From positions 15,336-79,335 of the forward strand of contig JAFIED010000006.1 in NCBI GenBank assembly GCA_020832805.1: a stretch of DNA of 64,000 nt. Reading direction: 5' to 3'. Positions 18,156-42,367 of the stretch are shown one piece after another. Made by a program: the position numbers and the translations under genes. The first letter of the stretch is position 1. Each line of letters starts with the position of its first letter. The stretch comes from Pararhodobacter sp. GTDB lineage: Bacteria > Pseudomonadota > Alphaproteobacteria > Rhodobacterales > Rhodobacteraceae. The notes beneath the pieces are model-generated. The model searched no databases, had not been told where the DNA came from, and was given only the letters and a program-made list of their open reading frames with translations.

Positions 18156-18234
18156 ATTGGTGGCGGGTTGCCGGGCGACCGGGCGCAGCGCAGAATGCAG
18201 CATCTTCAGAAAACCACCAAAGGGGATTCTGCCC

Positions 18235-18978
18235 ATGGCACTTCGGCGCATACCGCTAAACGGGGCGGTCAACTTTCGTGACCTCGGCGGCTATCCGGTT
18301 GCGGGCGGCCGTCAGACACGCTGGCAACGGCTGTATCGCTCTGATTCGCTGGCGGAACTGGATGCCGACGATCTGGCCCGGCTTCAGGCGCTGGGCCTGC
18401 GCAGCCTGTGCGATTTCCGGCTGCCGGAAGAGGCCGCCAAGAAACCGAACCGGCTGCCCGATGGCCATGCCATCCAGCTGCATGCGATCGGCTTCATCCC
18501 GGAGGGGACGCTGGACATGCTGGCATCGGTCGGTGACGGGCGCCTGCCCGCGGCCGAGATCGAGGCCGAGGTGCTGCGCCATTACGGCAAGTTCATCCAC
18601 GATCACCAAACGGAATACCGGCGCTTTTTCGAACTCTTGCTGGATGACGCCAATCTGCCCCTGCTGGTGCATTGCACCTCGGGCAAGGATCGCACCGGCA
18701 TTGCCGCGGCGCTGGCCCTTCTGGCGCTGGGCGTTCCACGGGCAGAGGTGGTCAGGGATTACACCCTGACCAATGATTACCGGCGCGACATTGCCCATCT
18801 GTTCACCGGCGCAGTGGACCGGGGCGCACTGCAGGTGCTGACTACCGCCAACCCCCGTTACATCGAAAGGGCGCTGGATGAACTGGACAGCGCCTATGGC
18901 GGGATTGCCGGCTGGTTCGACACCGTGGGCCTGGGCCGCGCCGCATTGGATGACCTGCGCGCCCGGCTGACAGAATGA
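18235..18978 (+). CDS. tyrosine/dual-specificity phosphatase family protein (Y_phosphatase3, MptpB/IphP-like)
   Basis: NFRDLGGY, LYRSD, HCTSGKDRTG P-loop, DYTLTN. Confidence 0.92.
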   Translation: MALRRIPLNGAVNFRDLGGYPVAGGRQTRWQRLYRSDSLAELDADDLARLQALGLRSLCDFRLPEEAAKKPNRLPDGHAIQLHAIGFIPEGTLDMLASVGDGRLPAAEIEAEVLRHYGKFIHDHQTEYRRFFELLLDDANLPLLVHCTSGKDRTGIAAALALLALGVPRAEVVRDYTLTNDYRRDIAHLFTGAVDRGALQVLTTANPRYIERALDELDSAYGGIAGWFDTVGLGRAALDDLRARLTE

Positions 18979-19898: not shown

Positions 19899-19941
19899 CA
19901 TGAGGAGCACAACCCGGTTCCATCCGGGCAAGGGGGGAAAG

Positions 19942-21183
19942 ATGCGCGAAGTTTTCGTGGTTGGTGTCGGCATGACGCCCTTTGGCCGCTGGCCGGATCG
20001 CAGCGTGGGCGACATGGCACAGGATGCGGTGCGCGCGGCACTGGCCGATTGCGGGCTGGGGCCGGAGGCGGTGCAATCCATCGCCTTTGCCAATGCCGTT
20101 CAGGGCGCGATGGAGGGGCAGTTCGGCATTCGCGGACAGATCGCGCTGCAAGAGATGCCCTTTGATGCCGTGCCCATCATCAATGTCGAAAACGCCTGTG
20201 CCAGCGCCTCGACCGCGTTCAACATCGCGCTCAGCCAGATCCGCGCGGGCGAGGTGGATGTGGCGCTGGCGGTGGGGTCGGAAAAGATGGTGCATGCCGA
20301 TGGCGCCCTGTCCATGGCGGCGTTCGAGGGCAGCTGGGACCGCGCCCGCCGCGATGCCACCATCGAACGGCTGACGGCGCTGGGCCACGGCATGCCCACA
20401 CCGCCTGAACAGGCGGCGCGCGAATCGCCGCGCACGGTGTTCATGGATGTCTATGCTGCCTTTACCAAATACCACATGGCCCGATTCGGCACCACGCAGC
20501 GGCAGATGGCGGCGGTGGCGGCGAAGAACCACAATCATTCGGTGCACAATCCCCTGTCGCAATACCGCAAGCCCTTTACCGTCGACGAGGTCTTGCAGGC
20601 CCGGCTGATCGCCTGGCCGCTGACGCTGCCGATGTGTTCGCCGATCAGCGACGGGGCGGCGGCGGCGGTGCTGGTATCCGGCGAGGCGTTGAAGCGGTTG
20701 GGGCTTTTGCGCGCGGTGCGGGTGCGCGCGCAGGTGCTGATGAACGGCGGCAGGCGGGCGCCCGATCAGGTAGAGCGCCATATCTCGCACCGCGCGGCGC
20801 ATCGGGCCTACGAACTGGCCGGGCTGGGGCCGGAGGATGTGGATGTGGCCGAATGCCACGACGCCACCGCCTTTGGCGAGATCCAGCAAAGCGAGAATAT
20901 GGGCTTCTTCGCCTTTGGCGAGGGCGGGCCGGCGGCGGAGCGCGGCGAGACGAGCCTTGGCGGGCGCATTCCCTTCAACCCCTCGGGCGGGCTGGAATCA
21001 AAGGGCCACCCCATCGGCGCCACCGGGCTGGGGCAGATATTCGAACTGGTGACACAGTTGCGCGGCGAGGCAGGCAAGCGGCAGGTCGAAGGGGCGCGGA
21101 TTGCGTTGCAGGAGAACGGCGGCGGGCTGATGGGCGTGGAAGAGGCCGCAGTGGCCGTAACTTTGCTGGAGCGCGCAACATGA
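19942..21183 (+). CDS. thiolase family protein (SCP-x / lipid-transfer type)
   Basis: VENACASASTA, CSPISDGAAA, AECHDAT, SKGHPIGATG. Confidence 0.92.
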   Translation: MREVFVVGVGMTPFGRWPDRSVGDMAQDAVRAALADCGLGPEAVQSIAFANAVQGAMEGQFGIRGQIALQEMPFDAVPIINVENACASASTAFNIALSQIRAGEVDVALAVGSEKMVHADGALSMAAFEGSWDRARRDATIERLTALGHGMPTPPEQAARESPRTVFMDVYAAFTKYHMARFGTTQRQMAAVAAKNHNHSVHNPLSQYRKPFTVDEVLQARLIAWPLTLPMCSPISDGAAAAVLVSGEALKRLGLLRAVRVRAQVLMNGGRRAPDQVERHISHRAAHRAYELAGLGPEDVDVAECHDATAFGEIQQSENMGFFAFGEGGPAAERGETSLGGRIPFNPSGGLESKGHPIGATGLGQIFELVTQLRGEAGKRQVEGARIALQENGGGLMGVEEAAVAVTLLERAT

Positions 21184-22733
21184 GCCTGGCGATTCTGCTG
21201 GCCAATGCCGCCCGGCGCCACGCAGATAGCCCGGCGGTTTCCGTTGGTTTGCAGACCGTGTTGACCTATGGCCAGATGGGGGCGCGGGCGGCGGCGCTGG
21301 CCGGTGGCATGATGGCGCGTCACGGGCTGCGGCCGGGTGACCGCGTGGCGCTGGCCCTGCGCAACTGCCCGGAGTACCTGGAAATCCTGTTTGGCTGCTG
21401 GCATGCGGGGCTGGTTGCCGCACCGATGAACGCAAAGCTGCATGCGCAAGAGCTGGCTTATATGGCCGGCGACTGTGGCGCACGGCTGGTTGTTGCAGAT
21501 GATGATATCGCTGCGGCACTGGCCCCACATCTGCCCGGGGTGCCGCAGCTGGTGCCCGGCAGCGCTGCGTATCGGCGCCTGCTGGCAGGTGATCCGCTGC
21601 CGCTGTACCCGGTTGACCCGGCCGATGCCGCCTGGCTGTTCTACACCTCGGGCACCACCGGCAAGCCCAAGGGCGCGATGCTTTCCCACCGCAACCTGAT
21701 GGCCATGGCCATCGGTTATCTGGCCGATGTCGATGCGCTGGACGAACGCGACGGCTTGATCCATCTGGCGGCGACCTCGCATGCCTCGGGCCTGTTCGGC
21801 CTGTCCTTTGTTGCCAAGGGGGCGAACAACATCCTGCCCGAATCGGGCGGTTATGACGGCAACGAACTGGCGGGGTTGATCGGCGCGCGTGCGCGTCTCA
21901 GCTTTTTCGTGCCGCCGACCCTTTTGCGCCGCATGGTTGCCGATCCCGTTCTGCTGGCCGCCCCGAATCAGAATATCCGCACGATCCTGCTGGGTGCCGC
22001 GCCGGTCTTTGCCCAGGATTTGCGGGCGGGCGTCCAGGCGTTCGGCCCACGGCTGTGGAACGGCTATGGCCAGGGCGAAAGCCCCTGCACCATTACCGCC
22101 ATGAGCCAGCGCGACATTGCCGATGCACTGGCGGTGGGCAACGAAAGCCGGCTTGCCTCGGTCGGCACGGCGCGCAGCGGCACACAAGTGATCGTTGCCG
22201 ACGACCAGGGGCAGCCGTTGCCGCCCGGTGCGACCGGCGAGGTTCTGGTGCGGGGCGAAACCGTCATGGCCGGCTACTGGAACCGGCCGGAAGCCACGGC
22301 AGAGACCCTGCACAAGGGCTGGCTGAAAACCGGCGACATGGGCCGGATGGACGATGCCGGCTTCCTTTGGCTGCTGGACCGCCGAAAGGATGTCATCATC
22401 TCGGGCGGGGTGAACATCTATGCCAGGGAAATCGAAGATGTCCTGCACGATCACCCTGGTATCGCCGAGGCCGCCGTGGTCGGCCAGCCGGACCCTGAAT
22501 GGGGTGAAAGCGTGGTGGCCTTTGTCGTGCCCAGCCCCGGCGCGACAAGCGATCCCGCGGCATGGGAACAGATGCTGGCGGAACGGCTGGCCCGGTTCAA
22601 GCGCCCGCGCCACTGGCGGATCGTCGACACCTTGCCAAAGAACGCAGCCGGCAAGGTTCTGAAACGCCAGTTGCGCGCCGACCTTGCAACCCAATCCGGC
22701 GGCACCGACCAGGCCGCGTGGGTGCGAAGATAA
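21180..22733 (+). CDS. AMP-binding acyl-CoA synthetase
   Basis: YTSGTTGKPKG, YGQGE, TGDMG, DRRKDVIISGG, LPKNAAGKV; ATGA overlap with thiolase. Confidence 0.93.
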   Translation: MSLAILLANAARRHADSPAVSVGLQTVLTYGQMGARAAALAGGMMARHGLRPGDRVALALRNCPEYLEILFGCWHAGLVAAPMNAKLHAQELAYMAGDCGARLVVADDDIAAALAPHLPGVPQLVPGSAAYRRLLAGDPLPLYPVDPADAAWLFYTSGTTGKPKGAMLSHRNLMAMAIGYLADVDALDERDGLIHLAATSHASGLFGLSFVAKGANNILPESGGYDGNELAGLIGARARLSFFVPPTLLRRMVADPVLLAAPNQNIRTILLGAAPVFAQDLRAGVQAFGPRLWNGYGQGESPCTITAMSQRDIADALAVGNESRLASVGTARSGTQVIVADDQGQPLPPGATGEVLVRGETVMAGYWNRPEATAETLHKGWLKTGDMGRMDDAGFLWLLDRRKDVIISGGVNIYAREIEDVLHDHPGIAEAAVVGQPDPEWGESVVAFVVPSPGATSDPAAWEQMLAERLARFKRPRHWRIVDTLPKNAAGKVLKRQLRADLATQSGGTDQAAWVRR

Positions 22734-22858: not shown

Positions 22859-23608
22859 ATGGCAAAGCTATACGTGGATAACGACAAGTTCGGTTATCAA
22901 TCCGCCTCGCCCACGGTCGAGGCGTTCCATGCCGCCATCAAGGACATCGTGCGCCGCAAGCTGGACGACTGCGGCGGCGACTGGGACAGTTTTGTCTTTG
23001 ACAAGTCCTATGACCTGATCACCGCCGAAGACATGGCAAGCGTCGAACAGATGCTGCTGGACGCCGGGCACAAGTTCGACTGGTCAGCGGCGATCAGCCC
23101 GCGCGAGAAACCTGAAATCTACAAGCCCGCCGCCGGCGTGTCGGACGAGGACATGGCCACCTTCAGCTTCGAACACCCCGAGGCGAAAACGGCCGATGCC
23201 GATGCTGACGGGCGCGAATTGCGCGGCATTGGCGACAATGTGGCGCAGTATCCGCAGAACTGCAGCGGCACCGCGCGCTACATCCGGTCGCCCGATCAGG
23301 TGCTGAAATACCTGAACGAGGGCGTGCCGGCCGACACCATCGCCATCATCGACGATTCGGGCGGCACGCTGACCGCGCCCATCCTTGAGCATTTCAAGGG
23401 CGTGATCTGCGCCGGCGGGTCCACGCGGTCGCATCTGGGCATCCTCACGCGCGAATACGGCGTGCCATGCCTGATGAATGCCAAGATCAGCGGCATCCGG
23501 CAGGGCGATATCGTCGAGATCGAGGTGACCGCCAAGGCCAAGACGGCAGAAGCCTATCAGACCGGGGTCGAGATGACCGCCAATGTCTGGCGGCTGAACA
23601 AGGCCTGA
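22859..23608 (+). CDS. PEP-utilising enzyme mobile (phospho-His swivel) domain protein with unknown N-terminal domain
   Basis: GVICAGGSTRSHLGILTREYGVPC (His192) matches the T/S-S-H-x-x-I-x-x-R-E-x-G-x-P phosphohistidine signature. Confidence 0.88.
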   Translation: MAKLYVDNDKFGYQSASPTVEAFHAAIKDIVRRKLDDCGGDWDSFVFDKSYDLITAEDMASVEQMLLDAGHKFDWSAAISPREKPEIYKPAAGVSDEDMATFSFEHPEAKTADADADGRELRGIGDNVAQYPQNCSGTARYIRSPDQVLKYLNEGVPADTIAIIDDSGGTLTAPILEHFKGVICAGGSTRSHLGILTREYGVPCLMNAKISGIRQGDIVEIEVTAKAKTAEAYQTGVEMTANVWRLNKA

Positions 23609-23644: not shown

Positions 23645-25201
23645 ATGGCGCAGAATCGCATTTCATACGCGCAACTGCTTGAAACCAACAACATGATGCA
23701 GACCTGCTCTGACGAGACCTATTGGCTCTGCGTTACCCGCACGGTGCAGGAATCAAAGCTGTTTCCCGTGCCTGCCTACATGATGCTCAGCTATCTGAAC
23801 GCCTTTTACCGCTACCCGTCGCTGTTGAAAAAGATCGAAAGCCGCATGTCGGCCGAGGAGATCGGCGACCGGGCGCGCAACATGGGCATGAAGATTCAGA
23901 ACCCGTCGATGGGCTGGGCGCTGCCGGGCTTTTATCTGCTGGGCCGCGAATGGCTGATCAACATGGGCCTGCTGAAGCCCACGGACGCCATCGAGGATGT
24001 GGTCTATGTGATGGATTTCTGGAAGCGTTTCCAGCTGTCCTGGCACCGCAACGACGGGCACATCACCAACAAGGAATACGGCCACCGCGCGCAGGTGCTG
24101 CCCGAAAGCCGGGTGCAGGTCTTTCATGCCGACATGTATGACTGCGTCGAGGGGGACGAGCTGCACGAAGCCGCGCAGACCTTCATGGCCTCGGCCAGCC
24201 AGTACGGGTTCCTGATCTCCTGCGAAAGCCGCATCAGCCTGCACAATTCCGGCCCCTACAAGCTGGCCGACGACCGCGAAATGATCGTGCGCGACTTCAT
24301 GGACCTGTCGGAATCGGATTTCCCCTGGCTGGATGACGTCGCTGCGGGCGTGCCGCATAACAACATCACCGTGACAATGGCGGTAAAGGACTGCCATTTC
24401 TATCTGGTCGATGACTGGGGCTCGTTCGAGGCGCAGCCGGAATTCAAGGCCGACAAACTGGTGGGCGTGGGGCTTTACACCTCTGACAACCTGTCGGATG
24501 GCTACATGCCGCTGGGCATGGAATCGCGCGAGGCGCTCATCGCCAAGTTCAACGAGTTGAACGCCCAGGTAAAGGACGCCACCACCCAGCTGTGGAAGCG
24601 CATCGCCGCCTGGTCGCGCGACCAGATGATCGACGCCGGCGCGATCACCTATTTCGCCATCATCAAGGATCTGGCCCATGTCGCCGGTGTCTACGACGTC
24701 GACGACTGGATGAAGATCGACGAGCGCGCCGAACGCTTCCGCCCGCTGCTGAACGACGAATTCAGCCGTGACGCGCTGGGCGAGCTGGTGGGTCTGGTAT
24801 CGCATCCCAGCCAGCAGGTGATGGAATACACCATGGCGATGCATTCCAACAAACCGGTGCGGATGTATTCCAACATCCCCTATTCGGTACTGGCGGGCGA
24901 GCCCTACACGGCCTCCAGCGGGCCGGTCTATCCGGGCATCACCTATCTGCCGGAAAAGAAGGATGCCTATACCACCACGCGCGGGCGCATGACCCTGGCC
25001 GAATACAACAAGGCAAGCCGGGAATTCACGCCGCCAACGCTGACCGACAAGTACCGCCACCTGTGCGACACCTGGGTGAAATACAATGCCGGCAGCGAAC
25101 TGGCCGACGAGATGTACAAGCTCGAACAGGCCCGGTCGCGCAACCTGAAGGGCAAGGGATCGTCGCTGAAACGCGCCGATGTCGAAAAGCTGCGCGGCTG
25201 A
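23645..25201 (+). CDS. conserved hypothetical protein (518 aa), candidate substrate-binding subunit of a split dikinase
   Basis: GGAGGAG RBS, strong GC3 codon bias, globular composition; no motif recognised; function inferred only from context. Confidence 0.85.
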   Translation: MAQNRISYAQLLETNNMMQTCSDETYWLCVTRTVQESKLFPVPAYMMLSYLNAFYRYPSLLKKIESRMSAEEIGDRARNMGMKIQNPSMGWALPGFYLLGREWLINMGLLKPTDAIEDVVYVMDFWKRFQLSWHRNDGHITNKEYGHRAQVLPESRVQVFHADMYDCVEGDELHEAAQTFMASASQYGFLISCESRISLHNSGPYKLADDREMIVRDFMDLSESDFPWLDDVAAGVPHNNITVTMAVKDCHFYLVDDWGSFEAQPEFKADKLVGVGLYTSDNLSDGYMPLGMESREALIAKFNELNAQVKDATTQLWKRIAAWSRDQMIDAGAITYFAIIKDLAHVAGVYDVDDWMKIDERAERFRPLLNDEFSRDALGELVGLVSHPSQQVMEYTMAMHSNKPVRMYSNIPYSVLAGEPYTASSGPVYPGITYLPEKKDAYTTTRGRMTLAEYNKASREFTPPTLTDKYRHLCDTWVKYNAGSELADEMYKLEQARSRNLKGKGSSLKRADVEKLRG

Positions 25202-25276: not shown

Positions 25277-26764
25277 ATGCAGATCGGCTCTCTCATCCGC
25301 CGGGCGGCGGTGCATTTCGGTGATGCCCCCTGCCTGACCGAAGGCGCACGCAGTTTCAGCTACCGCGACTTCGACGCGGCCACCGACCGGCTGGGCAATG
25401 CGCTGCTTGCCAGCGGGTTGCAGCCGGGTGACCGGGTGGGTGTGCTGCTGCCCAATTCCATCGAATGCCTGATCGCCTATTACGCGCTGGCCAAGGCCGG
25501 GCTGGTGCGCGTGTCGCTGAACACGCGCGAGACACTGGAAAACCACAACTACAAACTGGCCGACAGCGGATCGCGTGCCGTGATCCATCAGGATATCGAC
25601 GGCTTGCAGGTAGAGCGCGCCATCGGTGCGGCCGAACTGGCACAGATGATCGCGGGCGGCGATGCCACCCCCTGCGCCATCGACCGCGACCTGGATGCGC
25701 CCCTGCGGCTGGGCTATACCGGGGGCACCACCGGCCAGCCGAAGGCGGTGACGCTGACCACGCGCGGCGAACTGGCCGAGCTCAGTGCGTTTCTGACCGA
25801 CCTGATGCCCGATATCCGCCCCGGCGACACCTTTTTGCATGCCGCGCCTATCGCCCATGCCTCGGGCGCGTTTTTCCTGCCCGCCATCACCTGTGGTGCG
25901 CGCTCTCTCATCATGCCGAAGTTCGATGCCGCCGAGTTCCTGGCACTTGCCGCGCGCGAACAGGCAAGCCTGACCTTTCTTGTACCCACGATGCTGGCCA
26001 TGATCATGGAGGCACCCGGCATCGACAGCGCGCAACTGAATTTCCGGCGCATCGCCTATGGCGCCTCGCCCATCTCGCCCACGCTGCTGGAACGCGCCGA
26101 GGCCCGGTTTGGCCGTGTCTTTGCCCAGACCTATGGCCAGGCCGAAAGCCCCATGGTGATCACCTGCCTGAAACCCGAAGACCATGACCGCATCGGCTCT
26201 TGCGGGCGGCCTTTCACCATCGTCGAGGTCGCGGTCTTTGACGACAACGACCAGCCCCTGCCGCCGGGCGAAAAGGGCGAGATCGTGTGTCGCGGCCCGC
26301 AGACCATGGCCTATTACTGGAACCGGCCAGAGGCGACGGAAAAGGCATTTCGCAACGGCTGGCTGCATACCGGCGACATCGGCACCATGGACGAGGACGG
26401 CTTCTTCTACATCCTCGACCGCAAGAACGACATGCTGATTTCCGGCGGCTTCAACGTCTACCCGCGCGAGGTGGAAGAGGTGCTGATGGCCTATCCCGGC
26501 GTGGTCGAAGCCGCCGTGGTGGGCCTGCCGGATGACACCTATGGCGAACGGGTCCATGCCGTTGTTTCGGGTCGCGCGGGACTGGATGCGCAGGCAATCC
26601 TTGAACACGCGCGCGGGCAGCTGGCGGGCTACAAGCGGCCGCGCGGCATCGACATCTGGCCAGAGCTGCCAAAGAGTTCGGCCAACAAGATTTTGCGGCG
26701 CGCGGTCCGTGACCGGCTGATCACCGAGGCCGGCACCCAGCCCGCCGCCGCCGCACAGGATTGA
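25277..26764 (+). CDS. AMP-binding acyl-CoA synthetase
   Basis: YTGGTTGQPK, YGQAE, WLHTGDIG, DRKNDMLISGGFNVYPREVE, LPKSSANKI. Confidence 0.93.
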   Translation: MQIGSLIRRAAVHFGDAPCLTEGARSFSYRDFDAATDRLGNALLASGLQPGDRVGVLLPNSIECLIAYYALAKAGLVRVSLNTRETLENHNYKLADSGSRAVIHQDIDGLQVERAIGAAELAQMIAGGDATPCAIDRDLDAPLRLGYTGGTTGQPKAVTLTTRGELAELSAFLTDLMPDIRPGDTFLHAAPIAHASGAFFLPAITCGARSLIMPKFDAAEFLALAAREQASLTFLVPTMLAMIMEAPGIDSAQLNFRRIAYGASPISPTLLERAEARFGRVFAQTYGQAESPMVITCLKPEDHDRIGSCGRPFTIVEVAVFDDNDQPLPPGEKGEIVCRGPQTMAYYWNRPEATEKAFRNGWLHTGDIGTMDEDGFFYILDRKNDMLISGGFNVYPREVEEVLMAYPGVVEAAVVGLPDDTYGERVHAVVSGRAGLDAQAILEHARGQLAGYKRPRGIDIWPELPKSSANKILRRAVRDRLITEAGTQPAAAAQD

Positions 26765-26777
26765 GGGAGGAAAGACC

Positions 26778-27383
26778 ATGCAACAGATGCATCTTGCCCT
26801 GCACGGGCTGGCCATCAAGAAACACGGCAGCCCCGCCGAAGTGGCCGCCATCGTGGGTTTGGATGAAGGCACCGCCGCCACCCTGCTGGACCAGGCCGCC
26901 GCCAACGGCCGCGCGGCCAGGGCGGGCGAGGCCAAATTCATGCTGACCGCGCCCGCGCAGATGGCCCTGCGCATGGAATACGGCAGGCTTTACGCCGATC
27001 TGCGCGCCAATGACGCCATGAACGCCGCCTATGACCGGTTCGAAAAGGTCAATGCCGACCTGAAGCAGTTGATCACCGACTGGCAGACAATCGAAGTGGC
27101 AGGCTCGCGCGTGCCCAATGATCATTCGGACAAGGCCTATGACGCGCGCATCATCGACCGGCTGGGCGCGCTGCACGAAGCTGCAGAACAGGTGATCGGC
27201 CAGATGGCGGCGCATCTGCCGCGCCTGTCGGTCTATGGCGATCTGCTGACCGAGGCGCTGGAAAAGGCCGAGGACGGCGCGCATGAATGGGTCAGCGACG
27301 CCAAGCTGCCAAGCTATCACACCGTCTGGTTCGAGATGCACGAGGACCTTCTGCGCATTCTCGGGCGCGAGCGCGATGAATAA
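26778..27383 (+). CDS. winged-HTH protein resembling mycobacterial Rv1126c (partner of truncated PpdK)
   Basis: N-terminal LHGLAIKK..AEVAAIVG wHTH-like segment; C-terminal SYHTVWFEMHEDLL motif recalled from the protein encoded beside mycobacterial ppdK; overlaps the ppdK-like start. Confidence 0.7.
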   Translation: MQQMHLALHGLAIKKHGSPAEVAAIVGLDEGTAATLLDQAAANGRAARAGEAKFMLTAPAQMALRMEYGRLYADLRANDAMNAAYDRFEKVNADLKQLITDWQTIEVAGSRVPNDHSDKAYDARIIDRLGALHEAAEQVIGQMAAHLPRLSVYGDLLTEALEKAEDGAHEWVSDAKLPSYHTVWFEMHEDLLRILGRERDE

Positions 27384-29196
27384 ACCGATGACCATCACCC
27401 CCCCCCATTCCGGCCATGACGGCCGCTGGACACTGACGCTGGACGGCGCAGAGTTGCCCCCGGCATCATTGATCGGCGGCAAGGCTTGGTCGGTGGCGCG
27501 CATGCTGTCATTGGGGCTGCCGGTGCCTCCCGCATTCGTCATCACCACCGAAGCCTGCCGCGCCTATCTGGCCAGCGGCGCCATGCCCGCCGGTCTGGAA
27601 GACCAGATCCGCGACGGCATACGCGACCTGGAGGCCCGCACAGGCCATGCCTTTGGCGGCCCCGGCGTGCCGCTTCTGGTCTCGGTGCGTTCCGGCGCGC
27701 CGATTTCCATGCCGGGAATGATGGACACCATCCTGAATCTGGGCATTTCCGACGAGACCGAGGCGCATCTGGCACAGGCGACAGGCGATGCCGGCTTCGC
27801 GCGCGACACGCATCGCCGCTTCTATGACCTTTACGCCAGCATCGTCTGCAAGGCCGTTGGCGCCGAATTCGATGCCGATGCCGGGTCGGCCGACTGGGAT
27901 GCCGTGCTGCAGGCGGCGACCGGCCAGACCATGCCCGAAACCGTCGAGGAACGCCTGTTCGCAGCGGTCCGCGCGGTCTTTGAAAGCTGGAACGCACGGC
28001 GCGCCAGGCGCTATCGTCAGCACCATGGCATACCGGACGATCTGGGCACCGCCGTCACCATTCAGGCCATGGTATTCGGCAATCTGGACGCCAACAGCGG
28101 CACCGGCGTGCTGTTCAGCCGCAACCCGCTGACCGGCGCGCGCGAGCCTTACGGCGAATACCTGCCGCGCGCGCAGGGCGAGGATGTGGTATCGGGCAAG
28201 TTCACGCCCGAACCCCTGTCGCGTATGGCCGAGCACGAACCGCAGGCCCATGCCGATCTTCTGCGCGCGGCAGAGGTCCTGGAACGTGAGAACGGTGATG
28301 TTCAGGATATCGAATTCACCGTGCAGCATGGCAAGCTCTACCTGTTGCAGACCCGCGCTGCCAAGCGCGCGCCGGATGCGGCCGTGCAGATCGCGGCGGA
28401 CATGGTCGCCGACGGCACAATCACCCCGCAAAAGGCCCTGAGCCGGGTATCCGCCGCGCAGGTGCGCAGCCTTCTGGCCCCGCGCCTGACACGGGCACCG
28501 GGCCCGGAAACAGAGGTGCTGGCACAGGGTGAAGGCGCCAGCCCCGGTGTGGGCCGCGGCATTGCCGTGACCGATGCCGATGAGGCCGAACAGCGCGCCG
28601 CGCAGGGCGAAGAGGTTGTGCTGGTGCGCGCCATCACCAGCCCCGAGGATGTGCATGGCATGATCGTGGCGCGCGCCGTGGTCACCGAAACCGGCGGCTC
28701 TACCTCGCATGCCGCGGTGGTGGGGCGCGCGTTGGGTCTGCCGTCGGTGGTGGGCTGCGGCGCGGGCGTGGTCGATGCGTTGAAGGGCCGCGAAATCACG
28801 GTCGAGGGCAGCATGGGCAAGGTCTTTGCCGGGCTGCTGGACGTATCCACCCCCGACGAGCGCAGCGATCCACGTCTGGCGCAATTGACCGAATGGGCGC
28901 GCGCCGCCAGCCCCTTGCGCGTCCTGCGCCCTGACGAGGTGCCTGCTGGCAGCGATGTGCAGGACCTGTCGCATGTCGAAGGGGGCGAAGACCCCCAGCA
29001 GATTGGCCGTGTCCTGCAAGGCGTGCGCGCCGCCCAGGGGGGGGCCATCGGGTCTGACGAAGGGGTGCGCGCCGCCATGGATCAGGGGCTCGAATTCATC
29101 GTCTGTACCCCGGTGCTGCCGGCCCTTCTGGCTGCCGTGCATTACGCCGCCGAACAGGCCGGCCAGATGACAGACACCCAACCCGCCGTTGACTGA
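27376..29196 (+). CDS. pyruvate,phosphate dikinase-like protein lacking the C-terminal PEP/pyruvate barrel (606 aa)
   Basis: GGKA, LLVSVRSGA..SMPGMMDTILNLG, QAMVFGN, SGTGVLFSRNP, QGEDVVSG, DIEFT..LQTR, GGSTSHAAVVGR (His445); only a short tail follows the swivel domain. Confidence 0.92.
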   Translation: MNKPMTITPPHSGHDGRWTLTLDGAELPPASLIGGKAWSVARMLSLGLPVPPAFVITTEACRAYLASGAMPAGLEDQIRDGIRDLEARTGHAFGGPGVPLLVSVRSGAPISMPGMMDTILNLGISDETEAHLAQATGDAGFARDTHRRFYDLYASIVCKAVGAEFDADAGSADWDAVLQAATGQTMPETVEERLFAAVRAVFESWNARRARRYRQHHGIPDDLGTAVTIQAMVFGNLDANSGTGVLFSRNPLTGAREPYGEYLPRAQGEDVVSGKFTPEPLSRMAEHEPQAHADLLRAAEVLERENGDVQDIEFTVQHGKLYLLQTRAAKRAPDAAVQIAADMVADGTITPQKALSRVSAAQVRSLLAPRLTRAPGPETEVLAQGEGASPGVGRGIAVTDADEAEQRAAQGEEVVLVRAITSPEDVHGMIVARAVVTETGGSTSHAAVVGRALGLPSVVGCGAGVVDALKGREITVEGSMGKVFAGLLDVSTPDERSDPRLAQLTEWARAASPLRVLRPDEVPAGSDVQDLSHVEGGEDPQQIGRVLQGVRAAQGGAIGSDEGVRAAMDQGLEFIVCTPVLPALLAAVHYAAEQAGQMTDTQPAVD

Positions 29197-29224
29197 CCGG
29201 CGTTTTCAGACAAGCGAGGCCCGC

Positions 29225-29767
29225 ATGAAAACCCCTGACACCGCTCCCCAGCAGGTCAAACCCGAGGATATCGAGGCGCTGATCGAGGTCTTTCAGGCCT
29301 CTGACTGGGACGAAATGCACCTGACAATGGGCGAATTCGAGATCTTTCTGTCGAACGACCCCAACGCCGCGCCGCAAGGCGCCGCACCAGCCCCCGCGCC
29401 CGCACCGGCCGCGCTGGCCGCCAGCGCGGCATCTGCTGCTGCACCCGGTGCTGCGCCTGCACTGGCCGCGCCAGCCCCCGCAGCCGGCGGGCCCGCCAGT
29501 GCTGGGGCCGAGGATGTGCCGGCGCATTGGCAGGTCGTCAGCGCCCCCAATCTGGGCACTTTCTACCGCGCGCCCAAACCCGGTGCCGCCAATTATTGCG
29601 AAGTCGGCCAAAGCGTGACTGCAGACAGCGAATTGTGCCTGATCGAGGTGATGAAGCTGTTTACCGCGCTGCGCGGTGGTATCGCGGGCACGGTGCGGCG
29701 CATCTGTGTGGCCGATGGCGAGATGGTCGAATACGGCCAGCCGCTTTTCTATATCGAGCCGGCATAA
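29225..29767 (+). CDS. biotin carboxyl carrier protein (AccB-like)
   Basis: Ala/Pro linker, GTFYRAPKPG, IEVMKL biotinyl-Lys motif, VEYGQPLF. Confidence 0.95.
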   Translation: MKTPDTAPQQVKPEDIEALIEVFQASDWDEMHLTMGEFEIFLSNDPNAAPQGAAPAPAPAPAALAASAASAAAPGAAPALAAPAPAAGGPASAGAEDVPAHWQVVSAPNLGTFYRAPKPGAANYCEVGQSVTADSELCLIEVMKLFTALRGGIAGTVRRICVADGEMVEYGQPLFYIEPA

Positions 29768-29770
29768 GCC

Positions 29771-31150
29771 ATGCCTGTCAAACGCCTTTTCGTGGCCAAC
29801 CGTGGCGAGATCGCCCTGCGCATCCTGCGTTCGGCCCGCGCGATGGGAATCGAGACGGTGCTGGGCGTTTCGGCTGCCGACCGCGAGGGCGCCGGGCCTG
29901 AGGCAGCAGACCGCGTGGTGGTGCTGGGTCCGGCACCCTCGGCCAAAAGCTATCTGGACCCGCGCCTGATCGTCCATGCCGCCGCCGCCACTGGCTGCGA
30001 CGCGCTGCATCCGGGCTATGGGTTCCTGTCCGAAAAACCCGAGCTGGCGCGCCTGTGCGAGGAAGAGGGCATCGCCTTTGTCGGCCCGCGCCCCGAAACC
30101 ATCGAGGCGCTGGGCGACAAGATGTCAGCCCGCGCCATGGCCATTGCTGCGGGTGTGCCCATCGTACCGGGCACCGATCACATCGCCGATCTGGACAGCG
30201 CGCGAAAGGCAGCGGCGGAATTGGGCTATCCGGTGGTGATGAAGGCCTCGGCCGGCGGCGGCGGGCGCGGCATGTTCAAGGCGGCCAGTGAGGCCGAACT
30301 GAACGCCTCGTTCGAGAGCGCCTCGCGCGCGGCGCAGGCGGCCTTTGGCGACAGCCGGCTTTACATGGAGCGTTTCGTCGAGGCAGCGCGCCATGTCGAG
30401 GTGCAGGTCATCGGCGACGGCGAGGGGGGCGTGCTGCATTTCGGCGAGCGTGACTGTTCCGTGCAGCGCCGATACCAGAAGCTGATCGAGGAAGCGCCCG
30501 CCAGCGCCATGCCCGACGCGCTGCGCACCCGCCTGCACGAAGCCGCCATCCGCATCTGTGCCCATGCCCGCTACCGCAATGCCGGCACGGTGGAATTCCT
30601 GTACGACGTGGCGCGGCAGGACATCTATTTCATCGAGGTCAATTCCCGCATCCAGGTCGAACACCCCGTGACCGAGGAGATCACCGGCATCGACCTGATT
30701 GCCTGCCAGCTGAAGGTCGCGGGCGGCGATGCGCTGGGCCTGACACAGGCTGATATCCGCCCCGCCGGCCATGCCATCGAGGTGCGCATCAACGCCGAGG
30801 ACCCGTTCGCCGATTTCCGCCCCTCGCCCGGGCGCATCACGGGCTGGGAACCGCCACGGGGGCCGGGCGTGCGGCTGGATAGCCACGCGCGCGCGGGTTA
30901 TCTGGTGCCCCCCTTTTACGACTCGATGATCGGCAAGCTGATCGTGCATGGCCATGACCGGGCCCAGGCCATCGACCGCCTGTTGCAGGCCATTGCCGAT
31001 TTCCGGCTGGAAGGGCCGCAGACCACGCTGCCGCTGGCTGCGCACATCCTGGACCACCCCGACTTTCGTGCAAACACATTCACGACCCGCTGGCTGGAGG
31101 ATCGGGTATTGCCCGATTTCGCCGCCGAGCGCCGTGCTGATGCCCCCTGA
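29771..31150 (+). CDS. biotin carboxylase subunit (AccC-like)
   Basis: ANRGEIA, HPGYGFLSE, GGGGRGM, ERDCSVQRR, EVNSRIQVEHPVTE, YDSMIGK. Confidence 0.96.
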   Translation: MPVKRLFVANRGEIALRILRSARAMGIETVLGVSAADREGAGPEAADRVVVLGPAPSAKSYLDPRLIVHAAAATGCDALHPGYGFLSEKPELARLCEEEGIAFVGPRPETIEALGDKMSARAMAIAAGVPIVPGTDHIADLDSARKAAAELGYPVVMKASAGGGGRGMFKAASEAELNASFESASRAAQAAFGDSRLYMERFVEAARHVEVQVIGDGEGGVLHFGERDCSVQRRYQKLIEEAPASAMPDALRTRLHEAAIRICAHARYRNAGTVEFLYDVARQDIYFIEVNSRIQVEHPVTEEITGIDLIACQLKVAGGDALGLTQADIRPAGHAIEVRINAEDPFADFRPSPGRITGWEPPRGPGVRLDSHARAGYLVPPFYDSMIGKLIVHGHDRAQAIDRLLQAIADFRLEGPQTTLPLAAHILDHPDFRANTFTTRWLEDRVLPDFAAERRADAP

Positions 31151-31164
31151 AGGAGAACGCCCCG

Positions 31165-32625
31165 ATGCATGTCGAATTCCTGGACGAAACCATCCGTGAT
31201 GGCCAGCAAAGCCTGTGGGGCATGCAGATGCAGGCCGGTATGGCGCTGCCCGTCACCCCGCTGCTGGACCGTACCGGCTTTCGGGTGATCGATCTGGCAG
31301 GCTCGTCGATGATGGAGGTGCTGATCAAGCGGTGCCGCGAAAACCCGTGGGAGGGGCTGGATCTGCTGGTGCAGTCGATGCCGCGCACACCCATTCGCGG
31401 CGGCATGCGCTCGAACGCCTCGGTCACCTTCGGCGTCACGCCGGATGCGCTGATGGATGCCTGGATGCGGCAGCTCAATCGCCACGGGGTGCGCAGCTTC
31501 TGGATCTATGATGTGCTGTTCAACATCCCCCAGACCCACCGGCTGGCCAAGGTCGCCAAGGAATTCGGGTCCGAGGTGGCGGGGGCGATCATGTTCACCC
31601 TCTCGCCCGTCCATACGGATGAATACTATGCCGACAAGGCCGACAAGCTGTCGGCCAGCCCCGATATCGACACGCTCTTGCTGTATGATACCGCCGGCAC
31701 GCTGGACAAGGACCGGCTGAAAACCCTGTTGCCCGCCATCGTGGCCAAGGCGCGCGGCAAGCCCATCGAGTTCCATTCCAACAACATCCTGGGCATGTCG
31801 GCCAAGGCCTATCTGGACAGCCTGGAACTGGGCGTCACCATCCTGCACACCGCCTCGCGCCCCATGGCGAACGGGCCGTCCACCCCGTCGACCGAGATCA
31901 TGGTCAAGAACATCGAGCTCAAGGGCTATACCCACAATCTGGACAAGAGCCTGTTCAAGCCGGTGGCCGATCATTTCGAGGCCGTAGGCAAGGCAGCCGG
32001 CTATCTGGTCAACCAGTACAACGAATACGACATCCTGTCGATCGAACACCAGATTCCCGGCGGGATGACCGGCACGCTGAAGGCACAGCTGGCCCAGCAC
32101 GGCATGTCCGACAAGCTGGATCAGGTGCTGGCCGAGACCGCCGAGGTGCGGCGCGAACTGGGCTATCCGGGCATGGCAACGCCCTTCAGCCAGCTTGTCG
32201 GCACGCTGGCGGTGCTGAACATCGTCACCGGCAAGCGCTATTCGGTGATCCCGGACGAGGTCATCCAGTATGCCGCCGGTTTTTATGGCGAGACGGTCGC
32301 GCCCATCGACCCGAATGTTCTGGACCGCATCATGGCATCGCCCCGCGCCAAGGAGGTCGTCGCCAACCCGCCCGAACAGCCCACCATCGAGGAATTGCGC
32401 AAGCGCTACGGCACCGACAACGATGACGAGTTGATCCTGCGCGCGCTGGTGCCAGAGGCCGATCTGGAACGGATGTGGGCGGCGGGGCCGGTGAAAACCA
32501 CCTATCCGCTGCTGTCCTCGCCCGAACTGGATCAGGTGCGCCGGTTGATGCGCGTGGCCCGCGCGCCGGTGGTGCAGATCAAGTCCTCGCTGATGAACCT
32601 GTCGCTCAAGCGTCATTCGGCCTGA
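31165..32625 (+). CDS. carboxyltransferase subunit, pyruvate carboxylase B / oxaloacetate decarboxylase alpha family (divergent)
   Basis: DETIRDGQQSL, HQIPGGM, RRELGYPGMATPFSQLVG; metal-ligand motifs altered (YDTAG, HSN). Confidence 0.9.
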   Translation: MHVEFLDETIRDGQQSLWGMQMQAGMALPVTPLLDRTGFRVIDLAGSSMMEVLIKRCRENPWEGLDLLVQSMPRTPIRGGMRSNASVTFGVTPDALMDAWMRQLNRHGVRSFWIYDVLFNIPQTHRLAKVAKEFGSEVAGAIMFTLSPVHTDEYYADKADKLSASPDIDTLLLYDTAGTLDKDRLKTLLPAIVAKARGKPIEFHSNNILGMSAKAYLDSLELGVTILHTASRPMANGPSTPSTEIMVKNIELKGYTHNLDKSLFKPVADHFEAVGKAAGYLVNQYNEYDILSIEHQIPGGMTGTLKAQLAQHGMSDKLDQVLAETAEVRRELGYPGMATPFSQLVGTLAVLNIVTGKRYSVIPDEVIQYAAGFYGETVAPIDPNVLDRIMASPRAKEVVANPPEQPTIEELRKRYGTDNDDELILRALVPEADLERMWAAGPVKTTYPLLSSPELDQVRRLMRVARAPVVQIKSSLMNLSLKRHSA

Positions 32626-38495: not shown

Positions 38496-38608
38496 AGTCA
38501 TTCCGAAGATAATGAATTTGCATTCCATGGCTTGCCGGGGCTAGTCACAGTGCAGCGCCGTAATGGCGCTTTTTGACGTTAAATTCACCCAGTGTGGAAA
38601 GGTCCGCC

Positions 38609-41600
38609 ATGCCCCGCCCCCAACGCTCGCCCGTTTTTGACCAGTTGAATGCGCTGGCACGCGAACGTGTGCTGGTGCTGGATGGCGCCATGGGGACGCA
38701 GGTGCAACGGCTGGGCCTGGGCGAGGATGATTTCATCGGGCACGGGCCGGGCTGCGCCTGCCACCCCATACTGCAATGGGATCGCCCCGGCGATGCACCC
38801 CGCAAGCCGCAACAGGGCAACAACGACCTGCTGATCCTGACACAACCGTCGGCGGTAGAGGAAATTCACTTTCGCTATGCCATCGCCGGCGCCGATATCG
38901 TAGAGACCAACACCTTTTCGTCGACCACCATCGCCCAGGCCGATTACGGGCTGGAACATGCCATCGAGGCGCTGAACACGAACGGGGCCCGCCTGGCCCG
39001 GCAAGCCTGCGACCGCGCAACGGCGCAGGACGGGCGCCCGCGCTTTGTGGCAGGCGCTGTGGGGCCAACGAACCGCACCGCGTCAATCAGCCCGGATGTG
39101 AACAATCCCGGCTACCGCGCCATTACCTTTGATGCGCTGCGCCTTGCCTATGCCGAGCAGATTCGCGGGCTGATTGCCGGCGGGTCTGATCTGATCCTGA
39201 TCGAAACCATCTTTGACACGCTGAACGCCAAGGCGGCGGTATTCGCCGCCCATCAGGTCTTTGCAGAAACCGGCGTCGAACTGCCGCTGATGATTTCCGG
39301 CACCATTACCGATGCCTCGGGCCGCACGCTGACCGGGCAGACCCCCACCGCCTTCTGGCATTCGCTGATGCATGCCCGCCCCTTTACCATCGGGCTGAAC
39401 TGCGCGCTGGGGGCCGAGGCGATGCGCCCGCATGTGGCCGAACTTTCGGCCGTTGCCGACACTTTCATCTGCGCCTATCCCAACGCCGGCCTGCCCAATG
39501 CCTTTGGCGGCTATGACGAAGGCCCGGCAGAGACTGCCGCCCAGATCGAGGATTTCCTGCGCGAGGGGCTGGTCAATGTGGTCGGTGGCTGCTGCGGCAC
39601 CACGCCCGAGCATATCGAGGCCATAGCAGAGGCCGCCCGCCGCCACGCCCCCCGCACGGTGCCCACCATCGCGCCCCGGCTGCGGCTTTCCGGGCTTGAG
39701 CCCTTCACGCTGACGCCGGAAATTCCCTTCGTCAATGTGGGCGAGCGCACCAATGTCACCGGCTCTGCCCGGTTCCGCAAGCTGGTGCGCGAGGGCGATT
39801 TTGCCACCGCACTGGAGGTGGCGCGCGATCAGGTCGAGGGTGGCGCGCAGATCATCGACGTTAACATGGACGAGGGGCTGATCGACAGCGCCGCCGCGAT
39901 GCGCGATTTCCTGAACCTTGTCGCTGCCGAGCCCGATATCGCCCGCGTGCCGGTGATGATCGACAGCTCCAAATGGGAAGTGATCGAGGAAGGGTTGAAA
40001 TGCGTGCAGGGCAAGGCGGTGGTCAATTCCATCAGCCTGAAAGAGGGCGAGGAACAATTCCTGCACCATGCCCGCCTCTGCCGTGCCTATGGCGCCGCCG
40101 TGGTGGTCATGGCCTTTGACGAGGCAGGCCAGGCCGACACGCAGGCGCGCAAGAGCGAGATCTGCGCGCGGGCCTACAAGCTGCTGACCGAAGACGGCTT
40201 CCCGGCAGAGGACATCATCTTCGACCCCAACATCTTTGCAGTCGCCACGGGGATCGAGGAGCACGACAATTACGGCGTCGATTTCATCGAGGCCACGCGC
40301 TGGATCAGGCAGAACCTGCCCCATGCCCATGTTTCGGGCGGTGTCTCCAACCTGTCCTTCAGCTTTCGCGGCAACGACACGGTGCGCGAGGCGATGCATG
40401 CGGTGTTCCTGTATCATTGTATCAAGGCCGGCATGGACATGGGCATCGTCAACGCCGGGCAACTGGCCGTCTATGACCAGATCGAACTGGAACTGCGCGA
40501 GGCCTGCGAGGATGTGGTGCTGAACCGCCGCGCGGATGGCACCGAGCGTCTGCTGGCGCTGGCCGACCGGTTCAAGGGTGGCGCGCGCGAGGCCAGGGCC
40601 CGCGATCTGACCTGGCGGACCTGGCCGGTCGAAAAGCGGCTGGAACATGCGCTGGTCAACGGCATCACCGAATTCGTGGACGCCGATGTCGAGGAAGCCC
40701 GCCAGCAGGCCGCCCGCCCGCTGGATGTGATCGAAGGGCCGCTGATGGCCGGGATGAATGTGGTCGGCGATCTGTTCGGCGCGGGCAAGATGTTCCTGCC
40801 GCAGGTGGTGAAATCGGCCCGTGTGATGAAACAGGGCGTGGCGGTGCTGCTGCCTTACATGGAGGCCGAAAAGGGCGAAAGGCAGGCGGCGGGCCGGGTG
40901 CTGATGGCTACGGTCAAGGGCGATGTGCACGATATCGGCAAGAATATCGTGGGCGTCGTGCTGGCCTGCAATGGCTACGAGATCATCGACCTGGGGGTGA
41001 TGGTGCCCGCCGAGAAGATATTGCAGACCGCGCGCGAGAAACAGGTCGACATGATCGGGCTTTCGGGCCTCATCACCCCCTCGCTGGACGAAATGGTGCA
41101 TGTCGCGGCCGAGATGCAGAAGCAGGGCTTCGACATGCCGCTGCTGATCGGCGGGGCAACAACCAGTCGCATGCATACGGCGGTCAAGATCCACCCGGCT
41201 TACGACCGCGGGCAGGCAGTTTATGTCACCGATGCCAGCCGCGCGGTGGGCGTGGTCTCGGCGCTGCTGTCAAAGGACCAGAAACCGGATTTCGTGAAGA
41301 AGACCCGGACAGAATACGCAGGCCTTGCCGCCGCCCATGCCCGTGGCGAGCGTGAGAAGGAACGCCTGCCGCTGGCCGCCGCCCGCGCCAATGCCCTGCG
41401 GCTGGACTGGGATGCCTATCAGCCCATAGCGCCTGCCTTTACCGGGACCAGGGTGCTGGAAGATTGGGATCTGGCCGAGATCGCCCGATATATCGACTGG
41501 ACACCCTTCTTTCAGTCATGGGAACTGAAAGGCGTCTATCCCCGCATTCTGGAAGATGCGACGGTGGGCGAGGCTGCGCGCGCGCTTTTCACCGATGCGC

Positions 41601-42367
41601 AAGCCATGATGCAGCGCATCATCGGCGAGCGCTGGTTCCAGCCCCGCGCGGTGGTGGGTTTCTGGCCGGCGAATGCCCAGGGCGACGATATCCGGCTGTA
41701 TGCCGATGCGGGGCGCGATCAGGTGCTGGAGACCCTGCACACCCTGCGCCAGCAATTGCCCCGGCGCGGCGGCAAGCCGAATATCGCGCTGTCCGATTTC
41801 GTCGCACCGGATGGGATCGCCGATCACATCGGCGCTTTCACGGTGACGGCCGGCGCGCAGGAAATCGACATCGCAAAGCGGTTCGAGGCCGCGGGCGACG
41901 ACTATTCGGCCATCATGGTCAAGGCACTGGCCGACCGCTATGCCGAGGCGATGGCCGAGATGCTGCACCAGCGCGTACGGCGCGATTTCTGGGGCTATGC
42001 ACCCGACGAAAGCTTTACCCCAGCCGAGCTGATCAAGGAACCCTACGCCGGCATCCGCCCCGCCCCCGGTTACCCGGCCCAGCCCGATCATACCGAAAAG
42101 GCCACGCTCTGGCGGCTGCTGAATGCCGAAGCGGCAACGGGCGTGACCCTGACCGAAAGCTATGCCATGTGGCCCGGCGCCTCGGTCTCGGGGCTCTATA
42201 TCGGGCAGCCGGACAGCTTCTATTTCGGCGTGTCCAGGATCGAGGCCGATCAGGCCGCCGATTACGCCCGGCGCAAGGGGATGACACTGGCCGAGGCCGA
42301 GCGCTGGCTGGCGCCGGTGCTGAACTATACGCCGGGCACGGGGAGTGAGAGCGCGGCGGCGGCATAG
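38609..42367 (+). CDS. metH: cobalamin-dependent methionine synthase (full-length)
   Basis: [51 protein letters not shown]. Confidence 0.98.

Follow-up and report, generated by a model that had tools for sequence, protein, structure and literature searches.

A VadK-like paralogue of pyruvate, phosphate dikinase that retains a relic of the PEP/pyruvate barrel and is proposed to act as a phosphoryl donor in a carboxylase operon of Pararhodobacter sp.

The gene at positions 27376..29196 (+ strand) of a 64,000-nt stretch of contig JAFIED010000006.1 from Pararhodobacter sp. (this whole stretch is hereafter the window) encodes a barrel-less, VadK-like paralogue of pyruvate, phosphate dikinase (PPDK), denoted here sPPDK. 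The gene is part of an operon with the order g03 – g04 – CoA ligase – g06 – kinase (sPPDK) – biotin carboxyl carrier protein (BCCP) – biotin carboxylase (BC) – carboxyltransferase (CT) – thiolase, where g03 is a swivel-domain protein, g04 a protein of no known family and g06 a protein similar to Rv1126c of Mycobacterium tuberculosis. The sPPDK gene comprises the following features:

27376..29196, + strand: sPPDK, VadK-like barrel-less PPDK paralogue, 606 aa (Pfam, NCBIfam NF004531, AlphaFold2 model)
27424..28410, + strand: ATP-grasp nucleotide-binding domain, residues ~17-345 (alignment to C. symbiosum PPDK, invariant columns, VIA-align)
28411..28860, + strand: linker and swivelling phospho-His domain (PEP-utilizers match, alignment, superposition on 2FM4)
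28861..29166, + strand: relic of the phosphoenolpyruvate (PEP)/pyruvate barrel, residues ~496-597 (conserved and folded; hidden Markov model, hhalign, AlphaFold2, superposition)

The enclosing open reading frame (ORF) on the + strand spans 27283-29196 and contains two plausible start codons, ATG 27376 (606 aa) and ATG 27388 (602 aa), the latter being the public gene call P0002. The upstream gene g06 ends with TAA at 27381-27383, and the sPPDK start accordingly lies either 8 nt inside g06 (ATG 27376) or 4 nt past it (ATG 27388), an overlap or a gap that is typical of translational coupling. As stated in an earlier reading of this locus that was made from the sequence alone (the sequence-only reading), the 606-aa protein ends just before the BCCP gene, with the stop codon TGA at 29194-29196. 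The GC content at third codon positions is high, as in the neighboring genes.

A Pfam search identifies in sPPDK the domains PPDK_N (4.7e-45) and PEP-utilizers (4.6e-20) and no further domain, which is the outcome anticipated in the sequence-only reading, where PEP-utilizers_C was expected to be absent. Alignment with the canonical PPDK of C. symbiosum (1KBL/1DIK; ~39% identity over the aligned residues) matches K22, R92, D321, E323, Q335 and R337, which mutagenesis of that enzyme has identified as its nucleotide site, with K36, R105, D311, E313, Q325 and R327 of sPPDK, and each of these is invariant among the 30 family members aligned. The Thr-Ser-His signature of the canonical enzyme is shared as well. 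It belongs to the motif GGSTSHAA, encoded at 28693-28716 with the His445 codon at 28708-28710, and neither T443-S444-H445 nor the motif around it varies within the sPPDK family. Thus, the earlier statement that the nucleotide-binding motifs and the phospho-His motif are intact holds residue by residue. In the AlphaFold2 (AF2) model of sPPDK (predicted local distance difference test, pLDDT, 90), the swivel superposes on the phosphoryl carrier domain of PPDK, 2FM4, with Z 16.3 and a root-mean-square deviation (rmsd) of 1.9. The ATP-grasp domain matches those of rifampin phosphotransferase (RPH) and HpeI in VIA-align with Z 18-22 (HpeI, 9GOJ, Z 18), and HpeI matches sPPDK over the grasp domain only.

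The C-terminal ~100 residues of sPPDK are a relic of the PEP/pyruvate barrel that consists of the linker helix and the first barrel strand and probably also retains the last strand-helix unit of the barrel. Residues ~495-597 are conserved in the family, with the consensus ...RL..L..WA...SPL.V...DL....GGEDP.....G.RGARGGAIASDEGVRAALAAGL.FIV..PVLP.LLAA, and in the AF2 prediction form a small alpha/beta unit with pLDDT 92-96. A hidden Markov model (HMM) of the C-terminal region, derived from 61 canonical PPDKs, matches, at its positions 2-49, residues 474-523 of sPPDK (E 3.8e-5), that is, the linker helix and the first barrel strand, and hhalign places these two elements in the same way. At the C-terminus, ~50 residues of sPPDK align weakly with the final ~50 of the barrel (hhalign P 0.036, probability 1.4%), with an Arg opposite the Cys of the barrel motif GICGEHGG, the catalytic Cys of the PPDK barrel; this alignment is put forward only for its collinearity and its agreement with the superposition of the structures. 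Residues 16-594 of the sPPDK model superpose on residues 2-873 of PPDK 1KBL with Z 41.7 and rmsd 3.2 A (VIA-align, 577 residues aligned), which places the relic at the edge of the barrel. The conservation of the tail, its confidently predicted fold, the HMM match, the C-end alignment and the superposition together identify it as a barrel relic, so that the description of a short unrelated tail without any barrel remnant, given in the sequence-only reading, has to be abandoned. With the tail alone as the query, no match to PF02896 (PEP-utilizers_C) is obtained in Pfam even at E<=10, and among 1.84 billion representatives the same query retrieves the C-termini of ~575-600-aa family proteins, or fragments of such proteins, and nothing else apart from two repeat proteins (one of 4133 aa without Pfam domains and a MucBP surface protein), which are regarded as artefacts. 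Compared with canonical PPDK, which contains a complete TIM barrel, sPPDK is ~270 residues short and keeps edge elements only; the catalytic part of the barrel is missing. Judging from this domain content, sPPDK is unable to bind pyruvate or PEP in the manner known from PPDK, and we propose that it is not a pyruvate/PEP enzyme.

Among the matches listed, more than 100 relatives with 60-70% identity to sPPDK are all 575-620 aa long and contain the same two Pfam domains; full-length close relatives, which would have pointed to a recent truncation as conceded in the sequence-only reading, did not come to light. The NCBIfam model NF004531 (PRK05878) matches sPPDK with 698 bits against a cut-off of 456 (positions 11-532 of 534 over residues 18-592) and carries the name "pyruvate, phosphate dikinase", which is unsuited to the domain content. 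NCBI and JGI give the same label to the family members while the genome carries a full PEP synthase, so the earlier warning against annotation as ppdK was well placed and the public label is misleading.

Trees were constructed for the ATP-grasp and swivel region and rooted on the PEP synthase of the same genome; M. tuberculosis is not among the tips. All PPDK-like proteins linked to g06 form a single clade apart from the canonical PPDKs (SH-aLRT 92). Four subgroups lie within this clade: the fusions of kinase and partner (support 97), the degenerate-barrel proteins of 836-850 aa (support 100), the actinobacterial proteins including one from Nocardia (support 96) and the proteobacterial tail-bearing proteins, to which sPPDK belongs (support 92); the latter two are joined at SH-aLRT 99. 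As the trees were built quickly and contain some long branches, their deep nodes are to be taken as provisional. As far as tree topology and protein length can tell, the short sPPDK lineage is an old clade rather than a recent truncation. The scan of genome contigs was dominated by canonical PPDKs that share conserved peptides, the informative loci being L001-L003, L005 and L065. The sister lineage represented by L065:2016-8615, and also found in L090, L091 and L092, encodes 836-850-aa PPDK-like proteins in which the barrel is full-length but degenerate: there is no Pfam match to PEP-utilizers_C, and the canonical C-domain HMM matches at positions 2-124 only. Upstream of these genes lie a swivel-only protein, 1-3 g04-like paralogues (~25% identity) and a g06-like gene, and in L065 the degenerate-barrel kinase is followed by a MeMO_Hyd_G and EthD protein. 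There is no biotin carboxylase near the degenerate-barrel kinases, and therefore the kinase module seems to serve another pathway in this lineage.

The barrel-less kind of PPDK is already known. Rv1127c of M. tuberculosis, renamed VadK, is a PPDK truncated to the ATP-binding and His domains (PMC13400623, EMBO Rep 2026); it autophosphorylates on His422 with ATP and Mg, both His422 and Arg106 are required for growth on propionate, and co-expression of its operonic partner Rv1126c improves its solubility (PMC13400623). The family was reported from mycobacteria, Nocardia, Streptomyces and Rhodococcus (PMC13400623). Like VadK, sPPDK combines a PPDK-derived ATP-grasp domain and a phospho-His swivel with no functional barrel, has the equivalent catalytic Arg and His and is paired with an Rv1126c-like protein of ~200 aa. 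In the trees, sPPDK groups with the homologue from Nocardia uniformis (L005; 50% identity to sPPDK) and other Mycobacteriales representatives. The link to VadK goes through these representatives and the published description. The VadK-type forms differ from sPPDK in that they lack the ~100-aa barrel relic, their matches ending at residue ~490-530, and in that the VadK-type pairs stand without the second swivel protein, the 518-aa protein and the biotin carboxylase of the catabolic operon in which sPPDK is encoded. The host of sPPDK is a proteobacterium and the role proposed for it is substrate phosphorylation, whereas the role of VadK is regarded as regulatory. Within their common clade, the actinobacterial VadK-type proteins look like further-reduced derivatives.

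The operon and its surroundings contain the following features:

26778..27383, + strand: g06, Rv1126c-like partner, 201 aa (MarR-like winged helix and four-helix bundle; adjacent or fused to sPPDK)
22859..23608, + strand: g03, 249 aa, second swivel domain with invariant His192 (syntenic in L001, L002, L087, L089, L094 and L096)
23645..25201, + strand: g04, 518 aa, no known family, presumed acceptor/substrate subunit (fused to g06 elsewhere)
29226..32625, + strand: biotin-dependent carboxylase, BCCP, BC and CT (syntenic with sPPDK in L001-L003, L087-L089, L094 and L096)
29771-31150, + strand: BC, part of the carboxylase
31165-32625, + strand: CT of the PYC_OADA type, part of the carboxylase
18157..18978, + strand: phosphatase of the Y_phosphatase3 family (same gene neighborhood)

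The g06 protein has more than 2000 homologues of near-constant length (200 aa) and belongs to no Pfam family; with a homologue as the query, the Atlas gives only an unnamed family of its own, once auto-named "transcriptional regulator". The AF2 model of a natural kinase-g06 fusion (pLDDT 93) shows the g06 part as a MarR-like winged helix (Z ~11, rmsd 1.7, 73 residues) with a four-helix bundle after it. The winged helix shows little conservation in the helix that takes the recognition position, whereas the motif SYHTVWFExHE (179-189) in the bundle is invariant. The bundle gives only generic bundle matches with Z 10-12, below the meaningful level for helical folds, and PDB sequence searches with g04 and g06 yield nothing informative. 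The bundle is rich in invariant His, Glu and Asp residues, which are found in LHE (132-134), in the EKAEDG stretch around E162-G167 and in SYHTVWFExHE, a pattern that suggests a metal or phosphate site.

The distribution of g06 is patchy and the gene is rare, being present in 9/401 genomes of the class to which the window belongs and in 31/201 Mycobacteriales. A PPDK-like gene adjoins it in 8/8 genomes of that class and in 5/5 of the Mycobacteriales tested, as well as in the loci L001-L003, L005 and L065 (adjacency or fusion), and every sPPDK homologue examined is encoded beside, or fused to, an Rv1126c-like protein. Kinase and g06 are naturally fused in P0275-P0279, Nocardia L005, G320 and G568. 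Fusions of g04 with g06, 717-748 aa long, occur in at least 25 clusters (P0242-P0271), and in G263 such a fusion is encoded directly upstream of a tail-bearing kinase and the carboxylase genes. Fusion of g06 to either neighbor is the strongest evidence at hand that the kinase, g06 and g04 act as one assembly. The VadK-type kinase and the Rv1126c-like domain of Nocardia uniformis share one open frame (L005:9935-12956), and directly after it lies a Y_phosphatase3 gene, of the same family as window 18157-18978 and also found in clusters L087 and L094. In P0246, P0272 and P0274, relatives of window 25277-27383, the CoA ligase (g05) is joined to g06; these may be read-through gene calls or frameshifts and not real fusions. 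The g05 and g06 genes of the window are 13 nt apart.

The operon order is retained in Tepidamorphus (L001), in the other alphaproteobacterial loci L002, L087, L088 and L094, partially in Sandaracinobacter (L003) and in one member of Mycobacteriales (L096). The upstream part of the operon contains a thiolase-like gene, a second CoA ligase, SurE and Y_phosphatase3, and genes for a short-chain dehydrogenase/reductase and a Zn-dehydrogenase are nearby. The presence of g04 follows the form of the kinase: g04 accompanies the tail-bearing kinases in 8/8 cases and g04-like paralogues accompany the degenerate-barrel kinases in 4/4, and in the five genomes (5/5) with tail-less or fused kinases no g04 was found genome-wide with this query. 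The tail-less sPPDK-g06 pairs are encoded without g03, g04 or the carboxylase. No Pfam, NCBIfam or PDB match to g04 was obtained in sequence searches, and these searches detect no similarity of g04 to HpeH or RPH. The swivel of g03 resembles the C-terminal swivels of RPH/PigC-type dikinases.

The type of carboxylase encoded downstream of sPPDK provides a clue to the pathway. The HpeCBA enzyme carboxylates only phosphorylated hydroxyphenylethanones (PMC9618137), and the kinase partner of Hpe/Acv-type carboxylases is replaceable, being either HpeHI/AcvAB or MarK (PMC12167813, PMC12624787). The HpeHI, AcvAB, CreHI and PpsAB systems, as well as the single-chain rifampin phosphotransferase, follow the same logic as the sPPDK system, with an ATP-grasp domain, a swivelling His and a separate acceptor domain, and the biotin carboxylase supplied by HpeHI and AcvAB is of the type found in the sPPDK operon. 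The organization differs in that the HpeHI-type ATP-grasp subunit is PEP-synthase/RPH-like and has no swivel of its own, the swivel being fused to an RPH-like substrate domain, whereas the grasp domain of sPPDK is of the PPDK type with its own swivel and the system includes four proteins and two His carriers. MarK (UPF0261, Novosphingobium aromaticivorans) is encoded at the corresponding place in its operon, ahead of acvCDEF-type carboxylase genes, but is a single ADP-forming protein of unrelated fold; thus, across lineages, the kinase step is filled by unrelated enzymes.

These observations are best compatible, with a probability that we put at about 0.6, with the hypothesis that sPPDK is the ATP-driven phospho-His donor of a four-protein small-molecule dikinase that takes the place of HpeHI/AcvAB or MarK in the step before an Hpe-type biotin carboxylase. 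Under this hypothesis, the ATP-grasp domain would move the beta,gamma-diphosphoryl of ATP to His445 of the swivel and shed one phosphoryl, as in PPDK/PEP-synthase chemistry; autophosphorylation on His445 can be expected from the intact residues and by analogy with the homologue VadK. Instead of a built-in barrel, the swivel would hand the phosphoryl over to separate acceptor proteins, namely the adaptor g06, g04 and the second His-swivel protein g03, to which the acceptor chemistry of the lost barrel would have moved, making this a third kinase solution besides HpeHI/AcvAB and MarK. The ~100-residue relic is conserved and co-occurs with g04, and it may have been kept for structural reasons or for docking. 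The adjacent Hpe/Acv-type enzyme would carboxylate the phosphorylated product, which is probably a methyl ketone formed from an alcohol, be it a hydroxyphenyl ketone or a different one; dephosphorylation, CoA activation and cleavage by thiolase would follow. The partner contacts, the direction of transfer, the substrate and the role of the relic are what we infer from gene arrangement and known analogues. The view of the sequence-only reading that the protein is an autophosphorylating donor for a partner subunit thus gains support from the autophosphorylation of VadK on the equivalent His and from the constant association with g06; such a subunit is strongly indicated, g06 being itself fused to the 518-aa protein elsewhere.

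Several points weigh against this hypothesis. To our knowledge, the two conserved His carriers, His445 of sPPDK and His192 of g03, exceed the need of any known dikinase, and the order of transfer between them is guesswork. Physical contact among the kinase, g06 and g04 is suggested by gene fusion and adjacency only, and the cases behind the counts of g04 by kinase form are mutually related rather than independent. The MarR-like winged helix at the N-terminus of g06 could mean DNA binding. Finally, the authors of the VadK study favor a regulatory role in the methylcitrate cycle through contacts with PrpC/PrpD (PMC13400623).

The latter view translates into the strongest alternative, regulatory phosphotransfer, in which sPPDK and g06 would tune the activity or expression of pathway enzymes and no substrate would be phosphorylated. 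The autophosphorylation of VadK, its contacts with PrpC/PrpD and the reported effects on flux (PMC13400623), the MarR-like winged helix-turn-helix of g06 and the existence of tail-less sPPDK-g06 pairs without g03, g04 or carboxylase are all in line with it. We take it seriously but consider it unlikely: g06 forms one chain with the 518-aa protein or with the kinase in many lineages, an uncommon arrangement for a regulator that binds DNA; conservation in g06 is concentrated in the bundle motif and not in the recognition-position helix; and the operon includes a second catalytic-type swivel protein, phosphatases and a type of carboxylase that needs phosphorylated substrates. Moreover, the VadK study reportedly detected no transcriptional control of the methylcitrate genes (PMC13400623).

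Less probable still, though likewise to be taken seriously, is a purely HpeI-like role, whereby the ATP-grasp domain would directly load the His of g03, g03 and g04 would together mirror HpeH, and the His445 domain would be an autoinhibitory or regulatory leftover. HpeI and PpsB do act in trans on a separate swivel, and g03, with its invariant His192, is similar to the RPH/PigC-type C-terminal swivels. However, a leftover domain is hard to reconcile with the family-wide invariance of T443-S444-H445 and the surrounding motif, with the retention of the His domain in tail-less relatives that have no g03, or with the reported requirement of His422 of VadK for growth on propionate (PMC13400623).

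A true PPDK with the barrel supplied in trans by another gene is highly improbable. The source genome is a metagenome-assembled genome, ~90% complete, so a gene could be missing, but PF02896 is confined in it to two proteins, a separately encoded full-length PEP synthase (797 aa) and a 766-aa enzyme-I-like ORF, with none encoded anywhere on this contig; the relic has no catalytic part; and in relatives with complete genomes a full-length PPDK is encoded separately as well (in 8/8 other g06-containing genomes of the class of the window, a protein of ~890-985 aa). A decaying ppdK fragment, for which the shortness of sPPDK might speak, can be dismissed given the hundreds of relatives at 60-70% identity, in which length is constant and the catalytic residues do not vary, the codon composition and apparent translational coupling shared with the neighbors, and the confidently folded tail. 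Thus, recent truncation, pseudogene and in-trans barrel are rejected on the uniform shortness of the relatives, the conservation and the distribution of PF02896.

A more elaborate version of the donor hypothesis is a His-to-His phosphorelay that would feed a small-molecule kinase, from the ATP-grasp domain to His445, via the g06 bundle to His192 of g03, and on to a substrate bound by g04. We regard it as unlikely. In its radical variant, the second carrier would capture the gamma-phosphate, which PPDK transfers to inorganic phosphate and PEP synthase to water, and one ATP would yield two usable phosphoryls. If the relay existed, VadK/Rv1126c of M. tuberculosis would be what reduction has left of such a catabolic dikinase, and the real acceptor of VadK would still have to be found, through Rv1126c.

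No description of the tail-bearing, operon-embedded sPPDK form, of the coupling to an Rv1126c-like protein including the fusions, or of the degenerate-barrel intermediates and the wide distribution outside Actinobacteria was found in the literature searched. The description of VadK dates only from 2025-26 and portrays it as a regulatory kinase found in pathogenic mycobacteria and their close relatives among Actinobacteria, without a known phosphoryl acceptor. Its lineage is widespread in Proteobacteria and present also in other phyla, is coupled to Rv1126c-like proteins in every case examined, with fusions in several lineages, and in its fuller form is encoded in a catabolic operon that clearly requires a substrate kinase. 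This yields a testable hypothesis for the entire family, namely that Rv1126c-like proteins are the adaptor to the acceptor. The family also documents stepwise domain erosion, from the full barrel through the degenerate barrel and the ~100-residue relic to none. If the proposed role is correct, sPPDK and its partners would be a third, unrelated kinase for the phosphorylation-carboxylation of aryl/methyl ketones, of interest for the utilization of lignin-derived aromatics. The name "pyruvate, phosphate dikinase" is wrong for hundreds of the public proteins that bear it, an error that distorts reconstructions of gluconeogenesis and pyrophosphate metabolism.

Some minor observations pertain to the gene models around sPPDK. 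The BCCP gene (window 29189-29767 as listed) probably starts at ATG 29226, with a purine-rich stretch just upstream, rather than at TTG 29189; the TTG overlaps the sPPDK stop codon. The 699-aa ORF at 20634-22733 (window 19900-22733) probably represents two genes: an SCP-x-type thiolase-like gene with high third-position GC content at 19900-21183 and a CoA ligase that starts near 21200, as its AMP-binding domain begins at residue 190 of the ORF. A scan of the operon for promoters and terminators yields nothing above chance. Just downstream of the cluster, at 38573-42367, lies metH, which encodes a full-length cobalamin-dependent methionine synthase (1264 aa) and is apparently unrelated to it.

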